Shown one piece after another: positions 23,900 to 33,600 of a stretch of DNA of 39,683 nt (positions are counted from its first letter, which is position 1; every line of letters starts with the position of its first letter). Below the pieces are notes generated by a model that saw only the letters and a list, made by a program, of their open reading frames with translations, made no database searches and was not told where the DNA came from. This stretch comes from a virus. Lineage: Duplodnaviria; Heunggongvirae; Uroviricota; Caudoviricetes. The translations under genes and the position numbers were made by a program. The DNA is taken from IMG/VR virus record IMGVR_UViG_2886169441_000004. One strand, 5' to 3'.

Positions 23900-25651
23900 A
23901 TGATTCAGGACGCTTTTGTGCGCCAGCGTGCGCGGCAACTTTACTGGCAGGGTTATCCGCCCGCAGAAATATCACGTCTGATGGGAATAAACCCGAACAC
24001 GATTTATGCGTGGAAAAAACGTGACCAGTGGGATGAAACGCCACCCGTGCAGCGTGTCACGCAGTCCATCGATGCGCGCCTCATCCAGCTTACTGAAAAA
24101 CAGAATAAAACAGGCGGTGACTTTAAGGAAATAGACCTGCTGACCCGGCAGCTTAAAAAGCTGCATGATGGCCAGCCGGATGTGATGGCCGCAGGAAAGA
24201 AAGGCCGGGCGAAAAAACTCAAAAATCATTTCACGCCGGAACAGATTGCCGCACTGCGGGAAAAAATCATCAGCAGGCTGGAGTGGCATCAGCGGGGCTG
24301 GTTTGACTCCCTGACCCTTTGCAGGGAAGCCGGGATACGTAACAGGATGATCCTGAAATCCCGACAGATTGGGGCGACCTGGTATTTTGCACAGGAAGCA
24401 CTGCTGATGGCGCTGCGTGACGATGTGGCGCAACCTTACCAGCGTAACCAGATTTTTTTGTCTGCGTCGCGTCGTCAGGCGTTCCAGTTTAAAAGCATTA
24501 TTCAGAAGGCCGCGGCTGAAGTTGATGTGGAGCTGAAAGGGGGCGATAAAATCATCCTCTCCAACGGCGCAGAGCTGCATTTTCTCGGCACTTCTGCTGC
24601 GTCGGCACAGTCCTATACGGGCAATTTTTATTTTGATGAATTTTTCTGGGTCAGTCGCTTTGCTGAACTGCGCAAGGTGGCTGGCGCTATGGCAACCCTC
24701 AGCGGACTGCGGCGCACCTACTTCTCCACGCCATCCACCGAAACGCACGAGGCATACGCCTACTGGAACGGCGACCGCTGGAACGAGAAAAAGGCCTCGC
24801 ATAAACGCCAGCGTTTTTCTGTGGACTGGAAAACGCTGCATAATGGGCTTATCTGCCCTGACCGGACGTGGCGGCAAATTGTCACGCTGGAAGATGTGGT
24901 TAATCACGGCTGGAAACACACCGATATCGACGAAATTCGTGATGAAAACACCGAAGACGAGTTCCTCAATCTCTATATGTGTGAGTTTGTCCGCGAAGGG
25001 GAATCGGCATTTAACCTGAATATCCTGATTGGCTGCGGTGTTGACGGATACGACGACTGGAAAGACTGGAAACCTTTTGCTCCCCGCCCGATGGGGAATC
25101 GTCCGGTATGGATTGGGTATGACGCAAACGGCAGTAGTGGCAACGGCGACAGCGGCGCTGTGTCCGTGGTGGTTCCTCCGGCTGTTCCTGGCGGCCGTTT
25201 TCGAACGGTGGAGACGCGACGCGTTCAGGGGCTGGAGTTTGAAGAACAGGCCAGAGTCATTGAAGAGTTCACGTGTCGCTACAACGTGGAACACATCGGC
25301 ATTGATGTGACGGGCGGGAACGGGGAGGCTGTTTATCAGATAGTGAAGCGGTTTTTCCCTGCTGCTATTCCGTACACCTTCACGCTGTCATCAAAACGGT
25401 CGCTGGTACTGAAAATGCTGCAAATAATGCGTGCCGGGCGGTGGGAATACGATCGCGCCGAACGCGAGCTGGTCGCGGCCTTTAACGCCGTGCGTAAGGT
25501 GAAAACACCGGGCGGCTTTATCACTTACGAAACGGACCGCGCGAGGGGGATCAGCCACGGCGACCTTGCGTGGGCAACCATGCTTGCTGTCATTAACGAA
25601 CCAATTGGCGGCGAAGGAGAAAACGAGCGTTTCATGGTTATGGAGTTCTGA
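23900..25651 (+). CDS. P: terminase ATPase (large) subunit P
   Basis: 583 aa; assigned by recalled similarity to P2 gpP and divergent position from O; GGGGGAG Shine-Dalgarno. Confidence 0.94.
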   Translation: MIQDAFVRQRARQLYWQGYPPAEISRLMGINPNTIYAWKKRDQWDETPPVQRVTQSIDARLIQLTEKQNKTGGDFKEIDLLTRQLKKLHDGQPDVMAAGKKGRAKKLKNHFTPEQIAALREKIISRLEWHQRGWFDSLTLCREAGIRNRMILKSRQIGATWYFAQEALLMALRDDVAQPYQRNQIFLSASRRQAFQFKSIIQKAAAEVDVELKGGDKIILSNGAELHFLGTSAASAQSYTGNFYFDEFFWVSRFAELRKVAGAMATLSGLRRTYFSTPSTETHEAYAYWNGDRWNEKKASHKRQRFSVDWKTLHNGLICPDRTWRQIVTLEDVVNHGWKHTDIDEIRDENTEDEFLNLYMCEFVREGESAFNLNILIGCGVDGYDDWKDWKPFAPRPMGNRPVWIGYDANGSSGNGDSGAVSVVVPPAVPGGRFRTVETRRVQGLEFEEQARVIEEFTCRYNVEHIGIDVTGGNGEAVYQIVKRFFPAAIPYTFTLSSKRSLVLKMLQIMRAGRWEYDRAERELVAAFNAVRKVKTPGGFITYETDRARGISHGDLAWATMLAVINEPIGGEGENERFMVMEF

Positions 25652-26697
25652 TGAGCAGAAAAAATAAAAAAGTGCGCATGAGTTCACGCATTGATCTCGC
25701 TGATGCGCTCAGGAAAGAATCATCGCTCAGTGCATTCACATTTGATGGTCCTTATCGCCTGACCGGGCATGACCTGCTGGACAATATGTACTGTGCTGAT
25801 AACGGGCGGTGGTATGAAACCCCGGTGGACTGGTACGGTCTGGCAAGAGCAGCCCGGCAAACGTCCTGGCATCAGTCTGCGCTTTACTTTAAGCGCAATG
25901 TATTACTCGGTTGCTACATCCCGCACCCGCTGCTTTCCCGGCAGGATTTCTCGGCGCTGGCGCTGGACTGGTTTGTGTTCGGTAACGCATTCCTTGAGCT
26001 TCGAAGCAATATGCTCGGCGAACCGCTTAAATTACGGCACGCCCTGGCGAAATACATGCGACGCGGAAGCGATCTTGAATCATGGTGGTATGTGCAGGAT
26101 GGCAAGGACGCGTTTCAGTTTCGTCCTGGCAAAGTGTGCCACCTGATGAATCCGGATATTAACCAGGAAATCTACGGCATGCCGGAATATCTTGGCGCAT
26201 TACTCTCGGCCAGCCTTTCTCATTCGGCGGACATGTTCAGAAAACTGTACTACGACAACGGATCCCACGCCGGGTGCATCATCTACATCGGTGCAGCGCA
26301 GGTAAACCGCGAAAGCATGGACTCCCTGAAAGAAACGCTACAGGGGGCACGTGGTGGTGGTGCGTTTAAAAACGTGCTCATTCATGCGCCCAACGGGGGC
26401 AAAGAGGGGGTGCAAATTTTGCCGTTCCAGCAGATCACCGCAAAAGATGAATTCATGAATGTTAAGGCGGCATCCCGTGATGATGTGCTGGCTGCGCACC
26501 GCGTTCCGCCGCAACTGATGGGGGCGATGCCGGGCGAAAAAAGTGCGTTTGGCGATGTGGAGAAGGCAGCGCGGGTTTACGCAATTAACGAGCTGATGCC
26601 CGTTATGGAGGCTATGAAGCACATCAATGACTGGCTTGGCGAAGAGGTGATCCGTTTTAACTCTTATGCTCTTCTTGATGAAAAAACAGCCCCGTGA
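25651..26697 (+). CDS. Q: portal (capsid vertex) protein Q
   Basis: 348 aa; start overlaps the P stop (ATGA); assigned by recalled similarity to P2 gpQ. Confidence 0.93.
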   Translation: MSRKNKKVRMSSRIDLADALRKESSLSAFTFDGPYRLTGHDLLDNMYCADNGRWYETPVDWYGLARAARQTSWHQSALYFKRNVLLGCYIPHPLLSRQDFSALALDWFVFGNAFLELRSNMLGEPLKLRHALAKYMRRGSDLESWWYVQDGKDAFQFRPGKVCHLMNPDINQEIYGMPEYLGALLSASLSHSADMFRKLYYDNGSHAGCIIYIGAAQVNRESMDSLKETLQGARGGGAFKNVLIHAPNGGKEGVQILPFQQITAKDEFMNVKAASRDDVLAAHRVPPQLMGAMPGEKSAFGDVEKAARVYAINELMPVMEAMKHINDWLGEEVIRFNSYALLDEKTAP

Positions 26698-26714
26698 TGG
26701 GGCTGTCCTTTTTA
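26681..26714. terminator. bidirectional rho-independent terminator after Q
   Basis: Stem CAGCCCC / GGGGCTG with loop GTGAT, flanked by an A-run upstream and T-run downstream; also lies after the stop of the convergent gene 26712..27236. Confidence 0.65.
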
Positions 26715-27236
26715 CCAGAGTTGAACCATTTTCTGGGTGCCGTCAGGCTTGAGATTATCAATTTCAGAGAGAACGTAATATTGAATGGCTTCACAAACGG
26801 TGGTGTAGGGTGAATTACCTTCTTTAAGTGGCACGATATTATTATTAACGCGAACCTGTATTTCATCGTTATACATTGCGATCGAAACAGGAGTGTGCAC
26901 GAACGCGACTTCGCCAGGTGTGTCGTCAACCACCGTTTCAATACTAAAAGTCAGTTTTCGCTCATCATTGCTGCCCCGTGCTTTGGGGGTAGCGGCAGGG
27001 ATCTGGGATAAAGGCATTCTGCGAAATCCTTCGGCTGCTTCCAGTCCGCATGAAACGTAATGCTGGCGATTACCGTCGCTATCTGTCCAGGTCTGTGATG
27101 GCAGCTCCAGCGAGATTTCATAAGCATCAACAATGCCCTGGGCAAGGCGTACAAGCGGGGTCAGATCTTCATTGCGGCGAAAGCTCTCCTTTACCTGCTC
27201 CCGTTTTTCTCTTAACTGCTTGTAATTAATGACCAT
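26712..27236 (-). CDS. hypothetical cargo protein, about 174 aa, no recognisable domain
   Basis: ORF 26712..27275; start placed at ATG 27236 (MVINYKQLREK...) with GGAGG at 7 nt spacing; convergent with the portal gene. Confidence 0.6.
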   Translation of the reverse strand: MVINYKQLREKREQVKESFRRNEDLTPLVRLAQGIVDAYEISLELPSQTWTDSDGNRQHYVSCGLEAAEGFRRMPLSQIPAATPKARGSNDERKLTFSIETVVDDTPGEVAFVHTPVSIAMYNDEIQVRVNNNIVPLKEGNSPYTTVCEAIQYYVLSEIDNLKPDGTQKMVQLW

Positions 27237-27336
27237 AAGACAGCCTCCATTGATTTCTTTGCTCGTATTTTGCACTTATGAAGTATGGTCGGCAAGGTGC
27301 CGTATCGCTGACGCGCTTCGCTTGTCTGCTGCTTCG

Positions 27337-27363
27337 CCGGGGCATAAAAAATTTATGCCCCGG
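27337..27363. other. perfect 27-bp palindrome CCGGGGCATAAA-AAA-TTTATGCCCCGG
   Basis: 12-bp arms read from sequence; upstream of the 26712..27236 gene in the non-coding region between the head genes and the cargo operon. Confidence 0.5.
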
Positions 27364-27735
27364 CTCTCCAGCTCCTGTATCAATCAGATAATTTCACGAC
27401 GCCTTCCAGTTTATCGCCACCATCGACGGTCAGACTCTTACGCAATTCCACCGCGTTGACTGCATGTTCTCGCTGCCTCAGTGCGATTTTGACGGCCTTA
27501 CCTTTCACCCCATCAAATCAAAAGCCCTCACGCCTTTTTCATGCTCAGCGTGAGAAATATGGCCATTCTGTTGTGTCTCTGCGACATCGTTCAGGGAATG
27601 CTATTTACCCCCTGAAACGCGGGCTGTTCCCCCGTCACCTGCGCGCAGAAAAAGCGCGTTTTTTTGTGCACGCACGGATCCTTGACGGATCCAGCCGCCA
27701 TGCGGGCCGGAAGGGTAAAAAGTCGTTCAAAAAAA

Positions 27736-27762
27736 TTGTGCAAATTTGTGCACTTTTGTGCA
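27736..27762 (+). promoter_or_regulatory. three TTGTGCA direct repeats at exact 10-bp phasing (candidate operator overlapping a promoter)
   Basis: Repeats at 27736, 27746 and 27756, followed by a TATATT -10-like hexamer at 27777..27782; a fourth TTGTGCA copy at 27664. Confidence 0.4.
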
Positions 27763-27862
27763 GGTAAGCATGCCTATATATTTGACCGTGGCTTGCCTTT
27801 GATGTAGTTTATACGTCACAAAAACCACAAAACGTGGTTATGATTTCTATGAGGGGGTTGAT

Positions 27863-27898
27863 ATGAAAAAAATGTATGATGAATTTGATGGTTTCTAA
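27863..27898 (+). CDS. candidate 11-aa leader peptide (MKKMYDEFDGF)
   Basis: Short ORF with GAGGGGG Shine-Dalgarno at about 5 nt spacing, immediately upstream of a terminator hairpin and the cargo operon. Confidence 0.3.
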   Translation: MKKMYDEFDGF

Positions 27899-27918
27899 GC
27901 TACGTTGACCTCTAATGA

Positions 27919-27946
27919 GGCGGGGATTTGCTCCCCGCCTTTTTTA
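27919..27946 (+). terminator. intrinsic terminator/attenuator hairpin 14 nt upstream of the cargo operon start
   Basis: Stem GGCGGGGA / TCCCCGCC with loop TTTGC, followed by seven T residues. Confidence 0.6.
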
Positions 27947-27959
27947 TGGATGAAATAGG

Positions 27960-28457
27960 ATGAACCCAATAACACTACAAATCATCAGCAATGCTATTGT
28001 TCTGCTTGGCGTTTTGGTTGCCATTGGAACCATTATCTACAATGTGCGTACCGCAAAAAAAACTCAAACGGCCAACTTTCTTTTTGAGAGTCGGCAAGAT
28101 ATGCAATATATAGAGTCATTGCATACCCTGAAACAAGTGCATCGTTCAGGCAAATCATTTCGTTCTTATGTTTTTCCTTGTGATGGTTGCATAATAACAG
28201 ATGAAGAAATGGCCGAGCGTCGAAAATTTCAATATATTTTAAATTTTTACGAGCGAGTTGCTGTAAGTATTCGTGAAGGTATTTATGATGAAAAAATGAT
28301 AAAAAGAACATCTTACACAACAGTTGTAGAGACATATGATATTGCCGAGCCATTAATTAAAGCAATCAGAGAAAGCATTAATTCGGATACTACATATCAA
28401 GAATTCGAATGGTTAGTAAGAAGATGGAAAGCTAATCCTTTACGGAAAAACAAATAA
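27960..28457 (+). CDS. cargo protein 1: 165 aa, N-terminal transmembrane helix plus soluble domain, unknown function
   Basis: Markedly AT-rich ORF; N-terminal hydrophobic stretch ITLQIISNAIVLLGVLVAIGTIIY; no similarity to P2 core genes. Confidence 0.7.
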   Translation: MNPITLQIISNAIVLLGVLVAIGTIIYNVRTAKKTQTANFLFESRQDMQYIESLHTLKQVHRSGKSFRSYVFPCDGCIITDEEMAERRKFQYILNFYERVAVSIREGIYDEKMIKRTSYTTVVETYDIAEPLIKAIRESINSDTTYQEFEWLVRRWKANPLRKNK

Positions 28458-28496
28458 TGTTTTACCCTTTAATTTACAAGTAACACAGGGGGAAGT

Positions 28497-29339
28497 GTGA
28501 CACAGAATCCGTTTTCATTTTATGACTTTTTGGGCTATCTAATTCCAGGTGGGTTATTCCTGTTTATCCTTTTTTTGTTTTCTATTGAAATTAACCCTGT
28601 TTATATAGAAGGTATTCTTAACCATATCCTGAAATATAAAGAAATAATAAGTGTATTTATATATGTGGTATTAATCGTTCTATCATATATTTCAGGTCAC
28701 TTCATATCTATTCTATCATCCTGTTTAATTGAAAAATACATGAACAGTAAACTTGGGTATCCTTCAATTTATCTGTTTTCTAAAAGAAGCTCCCTGAAAA
28801 TAAAACGACATAATACTAAGTTCAGTATAGTTAATTTTATTCGTGGAGTTTTTTTATTTCCTGTATCAGCTTTTGATAAAGCAGAACATCATAAAACCAC
28901 ACTGCATTCTATACTTATTAAAGTCTTTTGGCCGCAAATACGAGATGGTTATATAAATGTTTTTTCTGTATCTACGCTATATCGACGTAAGGGCTTGAGG
29001 GGCGATCTTTTTCGCCTTGCTTATCATTATGTGTATGAACATTCTAAAAATCATCAGGTGAAAATGCAAAACTATGTTGCTTTGTATGGTTTTTGTAGAA
29101 ACATTACATTTGTTTTTCTCGCTTCAGTCTGGTTGCTTATGTTCCTGCTCCTTCTATCCTTTTTAATAGATATAAATATCAGACTGTTACCTTTTTGTTT
29201 TCTTCTCTTGTTTTGTATTGCTGCATCCCGAGTATTTTATTATGGTTTTGTTAAGTATTATCGCCGCTATTCTCTTGAGGTTTTAATGGCATTTGCGGTA
29301 CTTCAGCACGATAAAAAAACTTCGGCAATTTCATCATGA
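28497..29339 (+). CDS. cargo protein 2: 280 aa, polytopic membrane protein (about 4 TM helices around a roughly 110-aa soluble region), unknown function
   Basis: AT-rich ORF 39 bp after cargo protein 1; GTG start with GGGGGAAG upstream; two hydrophobic helices at each end. Confidence 0.68.
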   Translation: MTQNPFSFYDFLGYLIPGGLFLFILFLFSIEINPVYIEGILNHILKYKEIISVFIYVVLIVLSYISGHFISILSSCLIEKYMNSKLGYPSIYLFSKRSSLKIKRHNTKFSIVNFIRGVFLFPVSAFDKAEHHKTTLHSILIKVFWPQIRDGYINVFSVSTLYRRKGLRGDLFRLAYHYVYEHSKNHQVKMQNYVALYGFCRNITFVFLASVWLLMFLLLLSFLIDINIRLLPFCFLLLFCIAASRVFYYGFVKYYRRYSLEVLMAFAVLQHDKKTSAISS

Positions 29340-29350
29340 TTTGAAACATT

Positions 29351-29373
29351 GGCACCCTGTTAGCAAGGGTGCC
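29351..29373. terminator. hairpin GGCACCCT-GTTAGCA-AGGGTGCC between the convergent cargo operon and parR
   Basis: Perfect 8-bp stem read from sequence, placed between the two convergent 3' ends. Confidence 0.5.
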
Positions 29374-29422
29374 AGAATGATGTGTTGGTCTGTATTTTAT
29401 TAGTTCACATACAATTATCAGA

Positions 29423-29737
29423 TTATTCTGGGAATAAGGTCTGAATATTCTTTTTTATTTTATAAAAATTGCATTCAACTCCGCTAGGCTGATTATCCTG
29501 GTATGTTTCCTTGATGCTAACGGTATTGAAGGGGAGGTTGTCCTCTGGCCATTCGGCCATCCAGTAGGCAAATGCTGGGTTGCGCTTTATGAGCGCTAGC
29601 CCAGCCAGAAAGGCCGCGCGTTGCGCGCGGCTGCGTTCGGAGGCTGGCAGGCTATCGAGGTAATTGCACGCCTCCTGTTCACTCTTGACGGCGGCGGGCT
29701 TCAGATAGAAACTTATCCGTCTGGTTGGTGTCGTCAT
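29423..29737 (-). CDS. parR: ParR-like centromere-binding protein (ribbon-helix-helix)
   Basis: Start placed at the internal ATG; RRISFYLKPAAVKSEQEACNYLDSLPASERSRAQRAAFLAGLAL resembles the N-terminus of plasmid R1 ParR as I recall it; directly downstream of parM. Confidence 0.78.
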   Translation of the reverse strand: MTTPTRRISFYLKPAAVKSEQEACNYLDSLPASERSRAQRAAFLAGLALIKRNPAFAYWMAEWPEDNLPFNTVSIKETYQDNQPSGVECNFYKIKKNIQTLFPE

Positions 29738-29741
29738 TGGT

Positions 29742-30701
29742 TTACTCCTTGTCCATTGCGTACAGCCCATTAACCAGAGCAAACTGTGGCACCCCGTCCG
29801 CGATGAAAGTCGCATTAACTCCGCAGACTTCGCGGATAGCGGGTGCCACAATCTCCGCCCCTCCACCGACAACCATCACCCGCCCGTAACCCGAAAAAAC
29901 CGCCAGCGCGCGGATCACGCGTTGTTTCAGTGTTTCTTCCTTTTCACGAATAACCGCCATCAGGCTGGCGTAATGCGCGTCATTGTGGATGTGCTGGCGC
30001 AGCCAGGCTTCATCATGGCGATGTTCGATAATGGTATTGGCGATGTGGTGACTGGTGCGCATACCGTTAGTGGCCATCACCGACAGTACGGCATCGGCCA
30101 TCAGGGAAACGCCTACGTGTGGATCGCAAAACACCTGGCTGATACCTGCCAGTTGCCCTTGAACCTTTGCCACATCCAGCGTGGTTCCGCCTAAATCCAC
30201 AATCAGCAGGGATTCAAACGGACTCATGTCAGCCAGTGCTTTAAAGCCAGCCGGAATGGATTCAGGCATAACCCGCACGTTACGGATAGTGAATGCTTCG
30301 CCGTTCTGGTATTCCACCGGGCGCATAACGTTCGCTTTTTTGCGGTTGATGTTGGCCATGTCCGGCTGTGCGTTTGTGTCGAAATACTCGCTCAGTGGCA
30401 GGGTGACAACCACATCCACCTCCTGTGGCGTGATGCCTGATTTGACCAGCGCGTGATGAATGGCGATTACATTCACATCGCTGTACTGGTATTGCGTGTC
30501 GGTCGTCTGGACAAAGCGATCGCTAACCGGATCAAAACCATAGCGCACGCCATCAAGCATGTAGTTCGCGGGCTGCATGCCACCGAACGGCGCAGACCAT
30601 TCCGACTTGAAGCTGTTCGGGCTGATGGCGTTGCGGCGTTCGCCATTCTCAGTCCATGCCAGCTTGATGTTGGTGGAGCCGTCGTCGATACAAATTTTCA
30701 T
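29742..30701 (-). CDS. parM: ParM/StbA-like actin-type segregation ATPase
   Basis: 319 aa; N-terminal phosphate-1 motif MKICIDDGSTNIKLAW and later blocks (ISPNSFK, QYSDVNVIAIHHAL, IVDLGGTTLD) resemble R1 ParM. Confidence 0.88.
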   Translation of the reverse strand: MKICIDDGSTNIKLAWTENGERRNAISPNSFKSEWSAPFGGMQPANYMLDGVRYGFDPVSDRFVQTTDTQYQYSDVNVIAIHHALVKSGITPQEVDVVVTLPLSEYFDTNAQPDMANINRKKANVMRPVEYQNGEAFTIRNVRVMPESIPAGFKALADMSPFESLLIVDLGGTTLDVAKVQGQLAGISQVFCDPHVGVSLMADAVLSVMATNGMRTSHHIANTIIEHRHDEAWLRQHIHNDAHYASLMAVIREKEETLKQRVIRALAVFSGYGRVMVVGGGAEIVAPAIREVCGVNATFIADGVPQFALVNGLYAMDKE

Positions 30702-30726: not shown

Positions 30727-30845
30727 TAATCGTTTACGGGATTCTGAAATCCCGTTTTTGCCTGTTTTGTGCGCGCTTCATATATCGCTGCGCGTTTTTT
30801 GCTCATTTACGGGATTCGTAAGTCCCGTTTCTGTCTGTTTTTTGT
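30727..30845. repeat. two about 42-bp direct repeats, each with a palindromic core ACGGGAnTCnnAAnTCCCGT followed by a T-rich tract, 74 bp apart
   Basis: Read from sequence, upstream of parM; the distal copy overlaps the last codons of gene A; possible parC-like centromere or operator, or a terminator pair. Confidence 0.5.
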
Positions 30846-33600
30846 TTCCACTGGTCAGGCCACCCCGCAGCAGGTCTGCTTTGCGGCTGGCGCGTTCAGT
30901 GGTTTCACTGATTCTCTGTGCGTGCTCTGCGTCGCGGATGGCGCGCAGCATGTCAGAAAGCACGGTAACGGGTGTTTTCATGGTGTTCTGGCCCTGCTGA
31001 AGTGTGGATGCCAGGCGTGCGGCGGCTTCAGGGTCTGATGCCCCCAGCTGTGCCAGATAGCTGGCGACCGGGTTATGGCGGATCTCCGTGCTGCTTACGC
31101 CATGATTACGGCTCAGGCGCTGCCAGAGCTGCGTGATTCGGCTGTCCGGGCGGGTATCCGGTTTGCGTACAATTTCAAATCCCTGCGGTGCAATGATGCT
31201 GCCGTCAACGTACAGACTGCCGCCCCGTAACAGGTGCTGCATCTGTTGTTCACCGATATGCAGGCCGAGAGATTCAGCAGACTCCCGCCATTCTTTAGCG
31301 AGTAATTCGTGGTTATCAGGCAAAGGCCGCTGCTGTTTGCGGCTCTGTGTCCAGCTCTGCATTTCATCGCTGCTGTTTTTTGCCTGTTTGTCACGAAGCG
31401 AACGCATCAGCGCCCGGCGTTCGTGTCGTTTCAGTGAGCGCATCCATTCGTTCACTTCAACGCCGTCAGGGAGCTGCGGCCACGGTGCTGGCCGTTCTTC
31501 CGGCTGTTCTGTCCCGTTGTTGTCCGTTTCCTGTACACGGGGACAGTTATTGCCACGAGTCCAAGGGGCGGCAGGGCCGCCCTGAAGGTCAAAACCATTT
31601 TCGCGGGCGCTGTCTTCCGCTTCCGGTTTACGTCTTACCAGCTTCCAGTTATCCGGATGCGTGCACACACGGGAGGATTCCCCGATGAGTGGTGACCAGA
31701 TCCCGTAAATCTGTACGCTCTGTTCGCCGTAATCGTTCAGCTCATCTGCGAGGTCGTAGGCGGTGCGAATCAGGTAGTCCTTGCGTGGAACAAGCACGCC
31801 ACCCTGTTTTTCAATGTAGGTGGCAAAACACCCGGCATCGGCGGCAGCGAGTACCGCATCCATTGCATCATCTTTCAGCCGTTGCGGGCCTTCCGGATTG
31901 CGTGCCATCTGGCTGGCAAGGCGGCGCAGTTCACGCCACACCTGACGGGAGGGGATGCCAAAGAACTGGAACTGACGGACCCGGTGAAGGCGCGCCCAGC
32001 CGATGGCGCGCTCCACGCTCTCGGCCATTGATTTTCCGGTTTCGTGGTCCACGCGTGGCTTGCCCGTTTTCGGGTCGATGCCATCCACGGCGCGGCTGTC
32101 CAGGTTCTTTCCGATGTAGGTGGCGATGTAGCTGGTTGGCGTGCCTTTTGAGCCGTCGACATACTCCACCTTAAAGCGCGGAGTAATATCATTGCCCAGC
32201 TCGTGGCGGTCTTCCTGAATGGCAATATCGCGGGTATGGGACACAATGGTGTCGATTTCTTCCGGATGTGCAAAGACCATCATATGCCAGTGCACGGTGC
32301 CGTCATGATGAGGCTCCACCGTGCGGATGCCATACCAGCGCAGGCCGTCGCGGTTCAGTTTTTTGCGGACCGCCGCAAAAAACGTGTTAACCAGGTAATC
32401 GCTGGAGTCGCGCATTGTGGCCCCGTTCCATTTGGGATTCGGATGACCGTTCTCCGTTGTGGCGTGGTATTTTGACGGGCAGGTGACAGTCAGAAACACC
32501 GCTTTGTCGCCACGGGCTTCGGCCAGAAGTTCCAGTCCCTTCATGGTGGCCATCATTTCTGCCTTACGGTGAACCGGGTTACTTACTCCCGCGTAATACA
32601 CTGTCTCGAGATCAATCGTGAACCCGTCTTCATTTTCCAGCATGAAACTTTTCAGGAAATCGCGTGTTTTCTCGCGCTGTGCGCGAAACTCGCTTAACGC
32701 GTCCTGGCTCAGATAGGGTGATGTTTTTCTGGAAACCAGACAGGCGGCGCGGAGTTGTTCTTCTCTCCACTCGCAACGTAACAGCCACAGTTTGCGTTTC
32801 CACCATTCCGCACAGGTCAGGCGAAGGATTGCGCCCGGCAGCAGCTCCGTGTCCGGTTCGTTCCTCCGGTCTTTGTCTGTTGTCAGTGCGTCATAATGTG
32901 GAGGCATGGCGTGCAGGTGTAACGCCATGCGGGCCAGCATCTGATACGCCTTCAGGGTTACATCCATGGTCAGCTCGCCATCGGTCGCGCCAAAGCCATC
33001 GCAGAGTTTTTCGAAGGTGCTGCTGAACATCGCCGCCGTCATGGTGGCCAGCGTCTGTATCTGGTGTTTGTTGAGCTGCGGCAGGTAAAGCAAATCGTCC
33101 AGGCGTTCGCGTCCGGCAAGGGAGCGATAACCCGGTGTCAGCCAGCGTCCGTCAGTGCTATCCAGACGTTCGAATATTTTGCGCAGGGTTCCGCGTGCAT
33201 AGCGTTCCGCCTGCCAGCTCTTTTTGCCTTTCCGGCGATCGGCTTCCTGTTTTTTGCGCAGGAAGGAGAGGTGGCGAATAAGCGGATCGCGCAGATAGGA
33301 CGGCAGCAGGCGCAGCGAGGCCATGGCTTCATCCACCGCGCCACGTGCCTGTTTTCTGGCGTCTCCTGCCAGTGTGATGGTTTTGTCCTGTTTTTCCTGT
33401 GCGTCCAGGCTTTTATTAATCAGGTTGCCCAGCGGCGTGGCTGAGAACGCCGCATCAGCCATTTCCTGGCGGCGCTCGTTCTCTGCCCGGTAGGCATCCA
33501 GCCAGGAGGAAAGCGCGGATTCAGGAGCGGGGATCCCCGTTCCTTCACGCCCCACTGCGTGGCGCGGTTGTTGCCAGTCCCTGAGGTACTCTGCCGTCAT
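30778..33600 (-). CDS. A: replication initiation endonuclease A (rolling-circle, HUH-type)
   Basis: 940 aa; the VEPHHDGTVHWHMMVF block matches the P2 gpA metal-binding motif; C-terminal region longer than P2 A. Confidence 0.92.
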   Translation of the reverse strand: MTAEYLRDWQQPRHAVGREGTGIPAPESALSSWLDAYRAENERRQEMADAAFSATPLGNLINKSLDAQEKQDKTITLAGDARKQARGAVDEAMASLRLLPSYLRDPLIRHLSFLRKKQEADRRKGKKSWQAERYARGTLRKIFERLDSTDGRWLTPGYRSLAGRERLDDLLYLPQLNKHQIQTLATMTAAMFSSTFEKLCDGFGATDGELTMDVTLKAYQMLARMALHLHAMPPHYDALTTDKDRRNEPDTELLPGAILRLTCAEWWKRKLWLLRCEWREEQLRAACLVSRKTSPYLSQDALSEFRAQREKTRDFLKSFMLENEDGFTIDLETVYYAGVSNPVHRKAEMMATMKGLELLAEARGDKAVFLTVTCPSKYHATTENGHPNPKWNGATMRDSSDYLVNTFFAAVRKKLNRDGLRWYGIRTVEPHHDGTVHWHMMVFAHPEEIDTIVSHTRDIAIQEDRHELGNDITPRFKVEYVDGSKGTPTSYIATYIGKNLDSRAVDGIDPKTGKPRVDHETGKSMAESVERAIGWARLHRVRQFQFFGIPSRQVWRELRRLASQMARNPEGPQRLKDDAMDAVLAAADAGCFATYIEKQGGVLVPRKDYLIRTAYDLADELNDYGEQSVQIYGIWSPLIGESSRVCTHPDNWKLVRRKPEAEDSARENGFDLQGGPAAPWTRGNNCPRVQETDNNGTEQPEERPAPWPQLPDGVEVNEWMRSLKRHERRALMRSLRDKQAKNSSDEMQSWTQSRKQQRPLPDNHELLAKEWRESAESLGLHIGEQQMQHLLRGGSLYVDGSIIAPQGFEIVRKPDTRPDSRITQLWQRLSRNHGVSSTEIRHNPVASYLAQLGASDPEAAARLASTLQQGQNTMKTPVTVLSDMLRAIRDAEHAQRISETTERASRKADLLRGGLTSGNKKQTETGLTNPVNEQKTRSDI

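Follow-up and report, generated by a model that had tools for sequence, protein, structure and literature searches.

P2-family prophages carry variable cargo between the portal gene (gpQ) and the replication endonuclease gene (gpA), and a survey of this locus in 18,150 E. coli prophages showed that the hotspot abounds in anti-phage systems (Rousset et al., 2022, Cell Host Microbe, PMC9122126). The P2 systems tested there were old-tin-orf91, DUF4238, hp+hp+hp, DprA+PRTase, AC1 2TM+1TM+TIR, phosphatase+2 kinases, HEPN, peptidase+TM, hydrolase+SMC, RM-like and exonuclease+HipA (PMC9122126). Described here is the cargo at the same locus of a P2-family prophage of 39,683 nt (IMG/VR record IMGVR_UViG_2886169441_000004; this whole stretch, to which all positions refer, is called the window). 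It comprises two co-oriented genes on the + strand: gene A (27960-28457, ATG start), which encodes a 165-aa DUF4760 protein, and gene B (28497-29339, GTG start), which encodes a 280-aa Csx27-like protein. These open reading frames (ORFs) had been proposed from the nucleotide sequence alone in an earlier annotation (the sequence-only reading), and the RefSeq entries WP_001068329 and WP_000193205 have the same ends. The pair was then taken to be undescribed; both protein sequences are, however, found verbatim in system #3, 'DUF4760', of Table S5B in Rousset et al. (1102 occurrences). That system is annotated '1 TM in protein 1, 4 TM in protein 2', and Phobius gives the four transmembrane (TM) segments of protein 2 (Table S5B, PMC9122126). 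Its arrangement is that of the window, with StbA, Plasmid_stab_B and a 187-aa ORF included, and the accessions given by Rousset et al. (WP_001068329, WP_000686485, WP_000211282, WP_000193205, WP_000236495) are the RefSeq accessions of the window genes; StbA and Plasmid_stab_B are entered as system #1, with 4592 occurrences (Table S5B, PMC9122126). The DUF4760 pair was absent from Tables S2A and S2B of cloned or tested systems (all four parts checked; 11 P2 systems), and a full-text literature search with the WP accessions and the leader peptide motif gave no relevant match, DUF4760 being mentioned incidentally once. The locus is already catalogued as a defence candidate and belongs to a known kind, P2 defence-hotspot cargo. 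What appears to be new is the lineage-specific juxtaposition of two independent cassettes, a conserved micro-ORF/terminator leader of DUF4760 genes, a predicted EP-like fold of DUF4760, and a relation of gene B to Csx27.

The nearest counterpart by position is old/tin of P2 itself. In the orientation of the window, the P2 order is Q, cos, old and tin, the last two being transcribed in the direction leading away from cos and towards a convergent gpA gene, and genes A and B occupy the old/tin position in the same orientation, between gpQ and gpA as in Table S5A of Rousset et al.; placement in this known hotspot of anti-phage cargo, as given in the sequence-only reading, was confirmed (PMC9122126). 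Both sets of genes are AT-rich accessory cargo. For A and B, G+C content (GC) was 0.349 and 0.317, compared with 0.52 for the window and 0.53-0.58 for the portal, parM and gpA genes, in agreement with the horizontal acquisition proposed earlier (0.35/0.32 vs. 0.52). There is no sequence or domain relation to old/tin: Old is an ATPase/TOPRIM nuclease and Tin is soluble; small membrane proteins, by contrast, are encoded by A and B. The AC1 2TM+1TM+TIR system, which we take to be the one named Rst_2TM_1TM_TIR in DefenseFinder, likewise includes small membrane proteins in the P2 hotspot, but no TIR domain is present at the A/B locus. A relation of DUF4760 to the 1TM proteins of AC1 or of RT-nitrilase+1TM was considered and rejected (hhalign profile comparison, probability <1%).

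System #3 is identical to A and B and was treated by Rousset et al. as one system; the comparative data obtained here separate its two genes. Across species-representative loci carrying A homologues (29-88% identity), no B homologue lay within 6 kb of the DUF4760 gene (0/29, tblastn). Among IMG/VR loci seeded with B, 59 of 66 lacked A within 4 kb, and 52 of the 59 loci seeded with A lacked B within the same distance. All 7 viral loci with both genes were at least 96% identical to the window and so represent one lineage. About 23 A-only viral loci were P2-like phages of other Enterobacterales with the DUF4760 cassette at the same spot, and genomes of Xenorhabdus, Kluyvera and Dryocola likewise had a P2-like arrangement with this cassette alone. 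Locus occupancy in related prophages, a check named with the earlier two-gene proposal, thus told against that proposal, adjacency being confined to one E. coli lineage. In these other P2-like phages the distance from the portal gene to the cassette is about 600-650 nt, and the next gene is mostly on the opposite strand. DUF4760 homologues were found elsewhere as low-GC chromosomal orphans, after the ast operon (Rahnella) or beside an ABC transporter (Enterobacter), and, within prophages, in modules of other kinds: the tail region (Providencia, Morganella), near a tailspike (Klebsiella) or beside a holin (metagenomic phage). B homologues (36-51% identity) stood alone in lambdoid prophages, either upstream of a DUF4224 gene and integrase, on the xis/int side, or after YfdP/YfdQ/YfdR-like early genes.

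The two genes also differ in divergence. Compared with the O111:H8 allele (NZ_CP077562.1), synonymous divergence (dS) was 0.039 for A, 0.08 for parM, 0.13 for the portal gene and 0.285 for B, from which it follows that gene B has a history of its own. The same alleles differed at 91/843 nt in B and 5/498 nt in A, with omega (ratio of nonsynonymous to synonymous divergence) of 0.26 and 0.07, respectively, and the amino-acid changes in B clustered in residues 91-155 and in TM3-TM4, a pattern that suggests either that B was replaced through recombination or that it evolves faster. Because of these omega values, and because both proteins have hundreds of homologues, neither ORF is a chance one. 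Conserved co-occurrence of A and B across lineages was not found. On these comparisons, A and B are very probably independent, separately mobile cassettes and not a conserved pair, and the simplest reading is that one juxtaposition event put B behind an existing DUF4760 cassette. In this lineage B is probably co-transcribed with A, since the gap is 39 nt, B has its own Shine-Dalgarno (SD) sequence, and no terminator lies between them.

The DUF4760 gene is preceded by a leader; its existence upstream of the pair had been noted in the sequence-only reading and was borne out. In the window, all on the + strand, it consists of a promoter-like element at 27782-27810 (-35 TTGACC at 27782-27787, 17-nt spacer, -10 TAGTTT at 27805-27810), a stem-loop near the 5' end of the transcript (AACCACAAAACGTGGTT, 27823-27839), the SD GAGGGGG (27851-27857), an 11-codon micro-ORF encoding MKKMYDEFDGF (27863-27898, stop included), an anti-SD-like segment GUUGACCUCU (27904-27913), predicted to pair with the SD and spacer of the micro-ORF at 27853-27862, and an intrinsic-terminator hairpin with a T-run (27917-27947; arms GAGGCGGGGA and TCCCCGCCTT, loop TTTGC). 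The hairpin itself spans 27917-27941 and has 10 pairs, 7 of them GC (terminator scan). Upstream regions of homologues from differing contexts share this architecture of promoter-like element, 5' hairpin, SD, micro-ORF, terminator and start codon. The cassette recurs wherever enterobacterial DUF4760 homologues occur, and distant relatives have related tiny ORFs.

The shared promoter-like element, TTGACT-N17-TA(A/G)TTT, occupies an identical position in front of homologues from unrelated contexts, and TTGACN-N16-18-TAnnnT was present in 23 of 49 distinct leaders. The copy at 27782-27810 is a candidate sigma-70 promoter; it was not called in the promoter scan, its -10 being weak. Hairpins that differ in sequence were seen by eye at the position of the 5' stem-loop in other loci. 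A strict pattern search recovered the micro-ORF in 57 of 70 distinct regions upstream of DUF4760 genes. Its general form is MKKxFDEFDGF-stop, with the variants DEYDWF, DEFEGF, EEFDGF, NEGWDGF and TGGF, and its last six residues, D-E-F/Y-D/E-G-F, were kept in the 49 distinct leaders. Across these leaders the codons varied (GAT 35/GAC 12, GAG 29/GAA 20, TTT 33/TTC 11, GAC 26/GAT 18, GGC 28/GGT 17, TTC 40/TTT 7), and all three stop codons occurred at the end. Since codons vary synonymously while the residues are kept, the micro-ORF is taken to be translated and its peptide is under selection.

A hairpin followed by a run of at least four U was found after the micro-ORF in 46 of the 49 leaders, with arm sequences that vary by lineage. 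The spacer between micro-ORF and GC hairpin was 16-19 nt, and the U-run was followed by a conserved ATGGATGAAA before the DUF4760 start. On an alignment of 18 sequences, 91.7% of cells were paired for the terminator and 5 of its 7 pairs had compensatory changes. For the SD:anti-SD helix, taken from minimum free energy (MFE) folds, 69.6% of cells were paired and 5 of 9 pairs were changed on both sides; helix and terminator together gave 79.9%, vs. 47-63% in slid controls. As the structure tested was derived from the window sequence itself, these figures represent moderate support for the SD:anti-SD helix. The terminator ends 13 nt before the gene A ATG, a gap that leaves no room for a promoter.

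Leader-peptide attenuators and arrest-peptide leaders are well known from the trp, pheA and his leaders, from tnaC, and from the ermC and cat leaders. The DUF4760 leader shares with these a short ORF with a strong SD immediately before a terminator of the downstream gene, conserved across homologues, and a peptide that is under selection; we interpret the terminator at 27917-27947 as an attenuator. The DUF4760 leader differs in that there is no run of codons for a single amino acid and no clear antiterminator, 18 nt separate the stop from the hairpin, the terminator is missing from some relatives that have the peptide, and there is no Rfam match (only sub-threshold noise at a permissive threshold over 27300-28100). 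Terminators on both sides had been thought to insulate the locus. Upstream, the hairpin and T-run are real, but they form part of the conserved leader, which travels together with the DUF4760 gene, and are for this reason no insulator of the locus.

Several further features of the leader were observed. In five complete E. coli genomes (one of them NZ_OX637964.1), IS421 is inserted inside the leader hairpin with a 13-bp target duplication, GGGATTTGCTCCC, at 27923-27935. A and B are thereby cut off from promoter and micro-ORF, which could mean either silencing or expression from the insertion sequence. The ATGGATGAAA element, at 27946-27962 in the window, matches, in one other locus (L019) and in relatives from Pasteurellaceae, the actual start of the main ORF (MDE...). 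In the window, a 5-codon ORF, MDEIG-stop, starts at this element; its TGA overlaps the gene A ATG (ATGA), which suggests translational coupling, and gene A has no SD of its own. An inverted repeat, ATTACC-N4-5-GGTAAT, overlaps the promoter spacer and -10 in many DUF4760 leaders and is degenerate in the window (27788-27810); it resembles the operator of a dimeric regulator. Among metagenomic DUF4760 relatives, the micro-ORF took the form MKDVTGGF-stop followed by a hairpin, or ...MDEYEPV-stop abutting the ATG (TAGATG).

The sequence-only reading recognised neither protein as a known family. Gene A is a member of Pfam DUF4760 (PF15956; E = 1.8e-34, 119.3 bits, cut-off 25), with residues 12-156 matching profile positions 2-141 of 141, and corresponds to phrog_2284. 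When 1.84 billion cluster representatives were searched with a profile, 2,724 clusters at 50% identity matched (E <= 1e-3). Of the best 150 of these clusters, nearly all had lengths of 150-200 aa and were covered by the match from end to end; DUF4760 is thus in essence a protein by itself, in keeping with a stand-alone function. Hydropathy (Kyte-Doolittle, 19-aa window) gave one hydrophobic segment in gene A, residues 8-26, in agreement with the earlier count of one in A and two at each end of B; by the positive-inside rule, protein A would be N-out/C-in with its C-terminal domain in the cytoplasm. Neither A nor B matched NCBIfam, and sequence-profile searches of PDB with both gave nothing meaningful. 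Other E. coli proteins named 'DUF4760 domain-containing' are about twice as long (332-339 aa; WP_097432356, WP_077873354). In the part of the DefensePredictor supplement covered here these are predicted novel defence genes, with log-odds of 6.7-7.6 (PMC13092281), and the UniRef50 cluster entered beside them in a table carries the label PD-Lambda-6, at what would be a low similarity (~0.14). Proteins A and B of the window were not found among the entries listed in that part of the supplement (PMC13092281).

The AlphaFold2 (AF2) model of gene A was entirely helical and of good quality (pLDDT 92.3, pTM 0.80). In Foldseek searches with this model, EDS1 chains ranked first: the first seven had TMq of 0.51-0.58 and probabilities of 0.85-0.99, vs. 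TMq <= 0.32 for unrelated matches, at E-values of 0.2-0.7, which are not significant. EDS1, PAD4 and SAG101 are plant receptors for ribosylated nucleotides made by TIR proteins. Their lipase-like half is alpha/beta and their EP domain is all-helical, so the resemblance of gene A would have to be to the EP domain. Identity was 5-12% and the comparison is of a predicted structure. EDS1 proteins have a lipase-like N-terminal domain, in place of which gene A (165 aa) has a TM helix, and there is no TIR gene nearby. On the model, the similarity of DUF4760 to the EP domain of EDS1/PAD4/SAG101 is a fold resemblance, not membership.

Gene B corresponds to phrog_12528 and matches no Pfam and no NCBIfam family. 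Homologues share the N-terminal start M[NT]QNPFSFYDF, which supports the GTG start; it is preceded at 4 nt by the SD GGGGGA, within the terminator-free 39-nt gap to gene A. Hydrophobic segments at ~12-30, 50-68, 206-224 and 230-248 (Kyte-Doolittle, 19-aa window) predict four TM helices. With a K/R-rich central region of net charge +15 and a tail of +3, the positive-inside rule would place both termini and the central domain in the cytoplasm (N-in/C-in).

Csx27 is reportedly an accessory membrane protein of type VI-B1 CRISPR-Cas13b, and is said to have been described as such by Smargon and colleagues in 2017. The PADLOC Csx27 model PDLC01605, a profile for which there is no curated threshold, matched 18 of 19 diverse members of the B family, with a best E of 5.6e-8. 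Residues 6-244 of gene B aligned with profile positions 4-179 of 206 (E-values 1e-5 to 6e-8), and 5 of the 19 members also matched 'tm_4', another VI-B-associated PADLOC model. An artefact of TM composition was rejected as the source of the match, as 0 of 10 reversed or window-shuffled controls matched at E <= 1. Csx27 is described as having four predicted TM helices and as repressing Cas13b, and a nucleic-acid channel has been proposed; Makarova et al. (2019) reportedly found Csx27 in predicted operons with natural-transformation genes and proposed the same channel (PMC7642515, PMC11662929). The title of that article also names ubiquitin-like signalling and DNA modification (FEMS Microbiol Lett fnz088). 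Gene B shares with Csx27 the profile over nearly its whole length and the four TM helices, but exceeds it by ~70-80 aa, has a more extensive cytoplasmic region in the centre and is phage-borne. It is not Csx27 in the strict sense: its neighbours are the portal, ParMR and gpA genes, with no cas13b or CRISPR array nearby. We accept gene B as a remote relative of the Csx27-like four-TM family on these profile matches. Within the B family, polar motifs at membrane-proximal helix ends were strongly conserved (NPFSFYDFLGYLIPGG, GDLFRLAYHYVYE..HQ.KIQNYVALYGFCRN, GFVKFYRRY.LEVLMAF). The structural model of gene B was mediocre (pLDDT 72.5) and had no specific structural neighbour, and a profile search of a 5.8-billion-protein set with the B alignment gave only close relatives among the matches listed.

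The explanation proposed is that two unrelated, independently mobile membrane-protein cassettes are stacked in the hotspot behind an attenuated leader and have an anti-phage role; taken as a whole package, we regard it as evenly poised. In this explanation there is no pairing of A and B as sensor and effector. Cassette 1 would be self-contained, with its own promoter, 5' hairpin, micro-ORF MKKMYDEFDGF, terminator and, 13 nt on, the DUF4760 gene. Transcripts can reach A, and B behind it, solely by terminator read-through. By default, the lysogen would therefore make a short leader RNA that encodes the peptide, and little of either A or B, most transcripts stopping at 27945. The translation state of the micro-ORF would set read-through and/or coupled translation, and stalling or altered termination at ...DGF-stop would raise either of them, with expression of A and then B. 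The A product would be anchored in the inner membrane (N-out, C-in), its helical domain, of EDS1-EP-like fold, facing the cytoplasm, and cassette 2, 39 nt behind, would supply the Csx27-like four-TM protein. To judge from location, each protein alone, at the membrane, may protect the lysogen from other phages by superinfection exclusion or abortive infection.

An anti-phage role of A and B is plausible from the location, and we place its likelihood at even or slightly under. The hotspot gives a prior, since old and tin of P2 itself lie in it and defence was shown by 3 of 8 additional candidates from the P2 hotspot (Rousset et al., 2022, PMC9122126) and by 6 of 8 P4-hotspot loci of no known function (PMC13586616). 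Both families have moron-type positions, gene B has its link to Csx27, and DefensePredictor, in the part of its supplement covered here, flags the other, longer E. coli DUF4760 proteins.

A number of observations weigh against one part or another of this explanation, and with them the rival explanations were compared. The pairing of the genes could be functional, as one cooperative defence or abortive-infection system in which A is, for example, the sensor or regulator and B the membrane effector. The genes are co-oriented with a single leader in front, and in complete E. coli genomes they always occur together (289 of 5,426 genomes, ~5%, for each gene), 39 nt apart and without a terminator between them. 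They were also curated as one system (Rousset et al., PMC9122126), and several known defence systems use membrane-protein effectors; A and B may be co-expressed and may cooperate within the E. coli lineage. Yet the two are adjacent in one lineage only (identity to the window of at least 96%), DUF4760 stands alone in the same hotspot of other genera, the divergence histories of A and B differ, and profile searches found no recognisable enzymatic or sensor domain in either protein. A cooperative pair is judged improbable, and independent cassettes are preferred. The attenuator within cassette 1 has difficulties of its own. Folding gave no convincing antiterminator, only the SD:anti-SD helix, and a ribosome at the micro-ORF stop is estimated to end ~8 nt short of the hairpin, assuming a footprint of ~12-13 nt past the A-site codon. 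In Pasteurellaceae the micro-ORF (M...NEGWDGF-stop) has a stop that overlaps the main start (TAATG) and no terminator, so the peptide, conserved more widely than the attenuator, may be more than an attenuator signal. This is the strength of another rival, in which micro-ORF peptide and DUF4760 form a two-component module, addiction-like or a peptide-gated effector: the 9-13-aa acidic/aromatic peptide would be ligand, inhibitor or antitoxin, and the terminator would mainly set the peptide:protein ratio. Conservation of the peptide far beyond the terminator, with TAATG and TAGATG junctions without a hairpin in Pasteurellaceae and a metagenomic relative, is as such a module would predict, and an aromatic-acidic-Gly-aromatic C-terminal end might suit a binding pocket. 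The same conservation of the residues before the stop is equally expected of a ribosome-arrest or termination-context signal, however, and we know of no precedent for an 11-mer antitoxin; we consider the module doubtful, about on a par with the cooperative pair.

The anti-phage role is opposed by a non-defence role of one or both genes, which may be lysis timing or envelope control, lysogenic conversion, stress tolerance, or upkeep of an episomal form equipped with ParMR. The hotspot also holds a partition system and cytolethal distending toxin (PMC9122126), and DUF4760 genes adjoin holin or lysis genes in some phages and metabolic genes on chromosomes. Many of them lie among housekeeping genes (ast operon, ABC transporters, GGDEF genes), outside defence islands. 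Protein A had no consistent match in PADLOC-DB v2.0.0, with sporadic weak PDC-S35 matches in 2 of 16 members (best E 0.004). Against such a role stand the classic moron positions of the genes (cos-proximal in the P2 hotspot, beside xis/int in lambdoid prophages), the relation of B to a CRISPR accessory family, and the patchy, horizontally moving, low-GC character of both genes, and we hold it to be rather unlikely, though less so than either rival above. As to EDS1, no sequence relatedness was detected: Pfam at E <= 0.1 gave DUF4760 only, and the PDB sequence-profile search gave nothing. Boldest is the idea that the DUF4760 cassette is a widespread immune or stress module gated by translation of the x-D-E-F-D-G-F peptide, its cytoplasmic domain being, if the model holds, a prokaryotic counterpart of the EDS1/PAD4 EP domain; this we rate as a long shot. 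To our knowledge the EP domain of EDS1/PAD4 is regarded as seed-plant-specific.

The surrounding genes agree with the P2 plan. Positions 27700-29500 are 100% identical to Escherichia phage Entero_P88 (from O25b:H4-ST131) and vB_EcoM-705R2, and the P88/P2-like prophage is common in E. coli ST131, with the A/B cargo fixed in many ST131 genomes. To the left lie the terminase gene (23900-25651, +) and the portal gene gpQ (25651-26697, +; Pfam Phage_portal and record annotation), which forms the left border of the hotspot. Between portal and DUF4760 leader is the 187-aa ORF (26712-27275, - strand), annotated as 174 aa (WP_000236495, phrog_5091; GC 0.47, no Pfam match) and separated from gene A by ~0.7 kb without long ORFs. 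It is missing from the O111:H8 allele (NZ_CP077562.1) and from several viral contigs, and is for that reason variable cargo itself. To the right, between the convergent genes B and parR-like, is a GC hairpin, GGCACCCT-N7-AGGGTGCC (29351-29373, strand unassigned, read from the sequence). This hairpin, the supposed downstream insulator, has a T-run on neither strand and was not called in the terminator scan. A ParR/StbB-like gene (29423-29737, -; Pfam Plasmid_stab_B) and ParM (29742-30701, -; Pfam StbA_N/ParM) follow, then the replication endonuclease gpA (30778-33600, -; Pfam Phage_GPA), which with ParMR forms the right border. The ParM/ParR-type partition module adjoins an unusually long gpA (940 aa). 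ParMR-type modules occur in about a quarter of P2-like phages, with possible plasmid persistence (Rousset et al., 2022, PMC9122126).

The cos site was also sought. The hairpin upstream of gene A was rejected as cos: the P2 cos GGCGAGGCGGGGAAAGCAC was absent from the window at <= 3 mismatches, the P2 cos junction aligned to 26650-28000 gave chance-level words only, and the same hairpin accompanies DUF4760 genes outside phages too, for which reason it is not cos. Neither a P2- nor a 186-type cos sequence was found in the window at <= 3 mismatches. The cos of the P88-like phage is presumably within 27276-27781, where 0.5 kb are without long ORFs; by eye, the sequence at ~27634-27649 briefly resembles the left flank of P2 cos (cgtca..gcgcgcag).

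With 1102 of 18,150 loci, the A/B cargo is among the three commonest P2-hotspot entries in E. coli. Its separation into two cassettes changes the design of cloning and testing, in that the genes would be tried singly and A with its native leader. Should neither gene prove anti-phage, the locus would speak against the view that everything carried in the hotspot is defensive, and be useful as a counter-example. Both the EP-like fold and the relation of B to Csx27 can be tested as bridges to known immune components, and a DUF4760 counterpart of the EP domain, if true, would add a further bacteria-to-eukaryote link in components of innate immunity. For the enterobacterial branch of the very large DUF4760 family, the conserved micro-ORF is a mutable handle on regulation.

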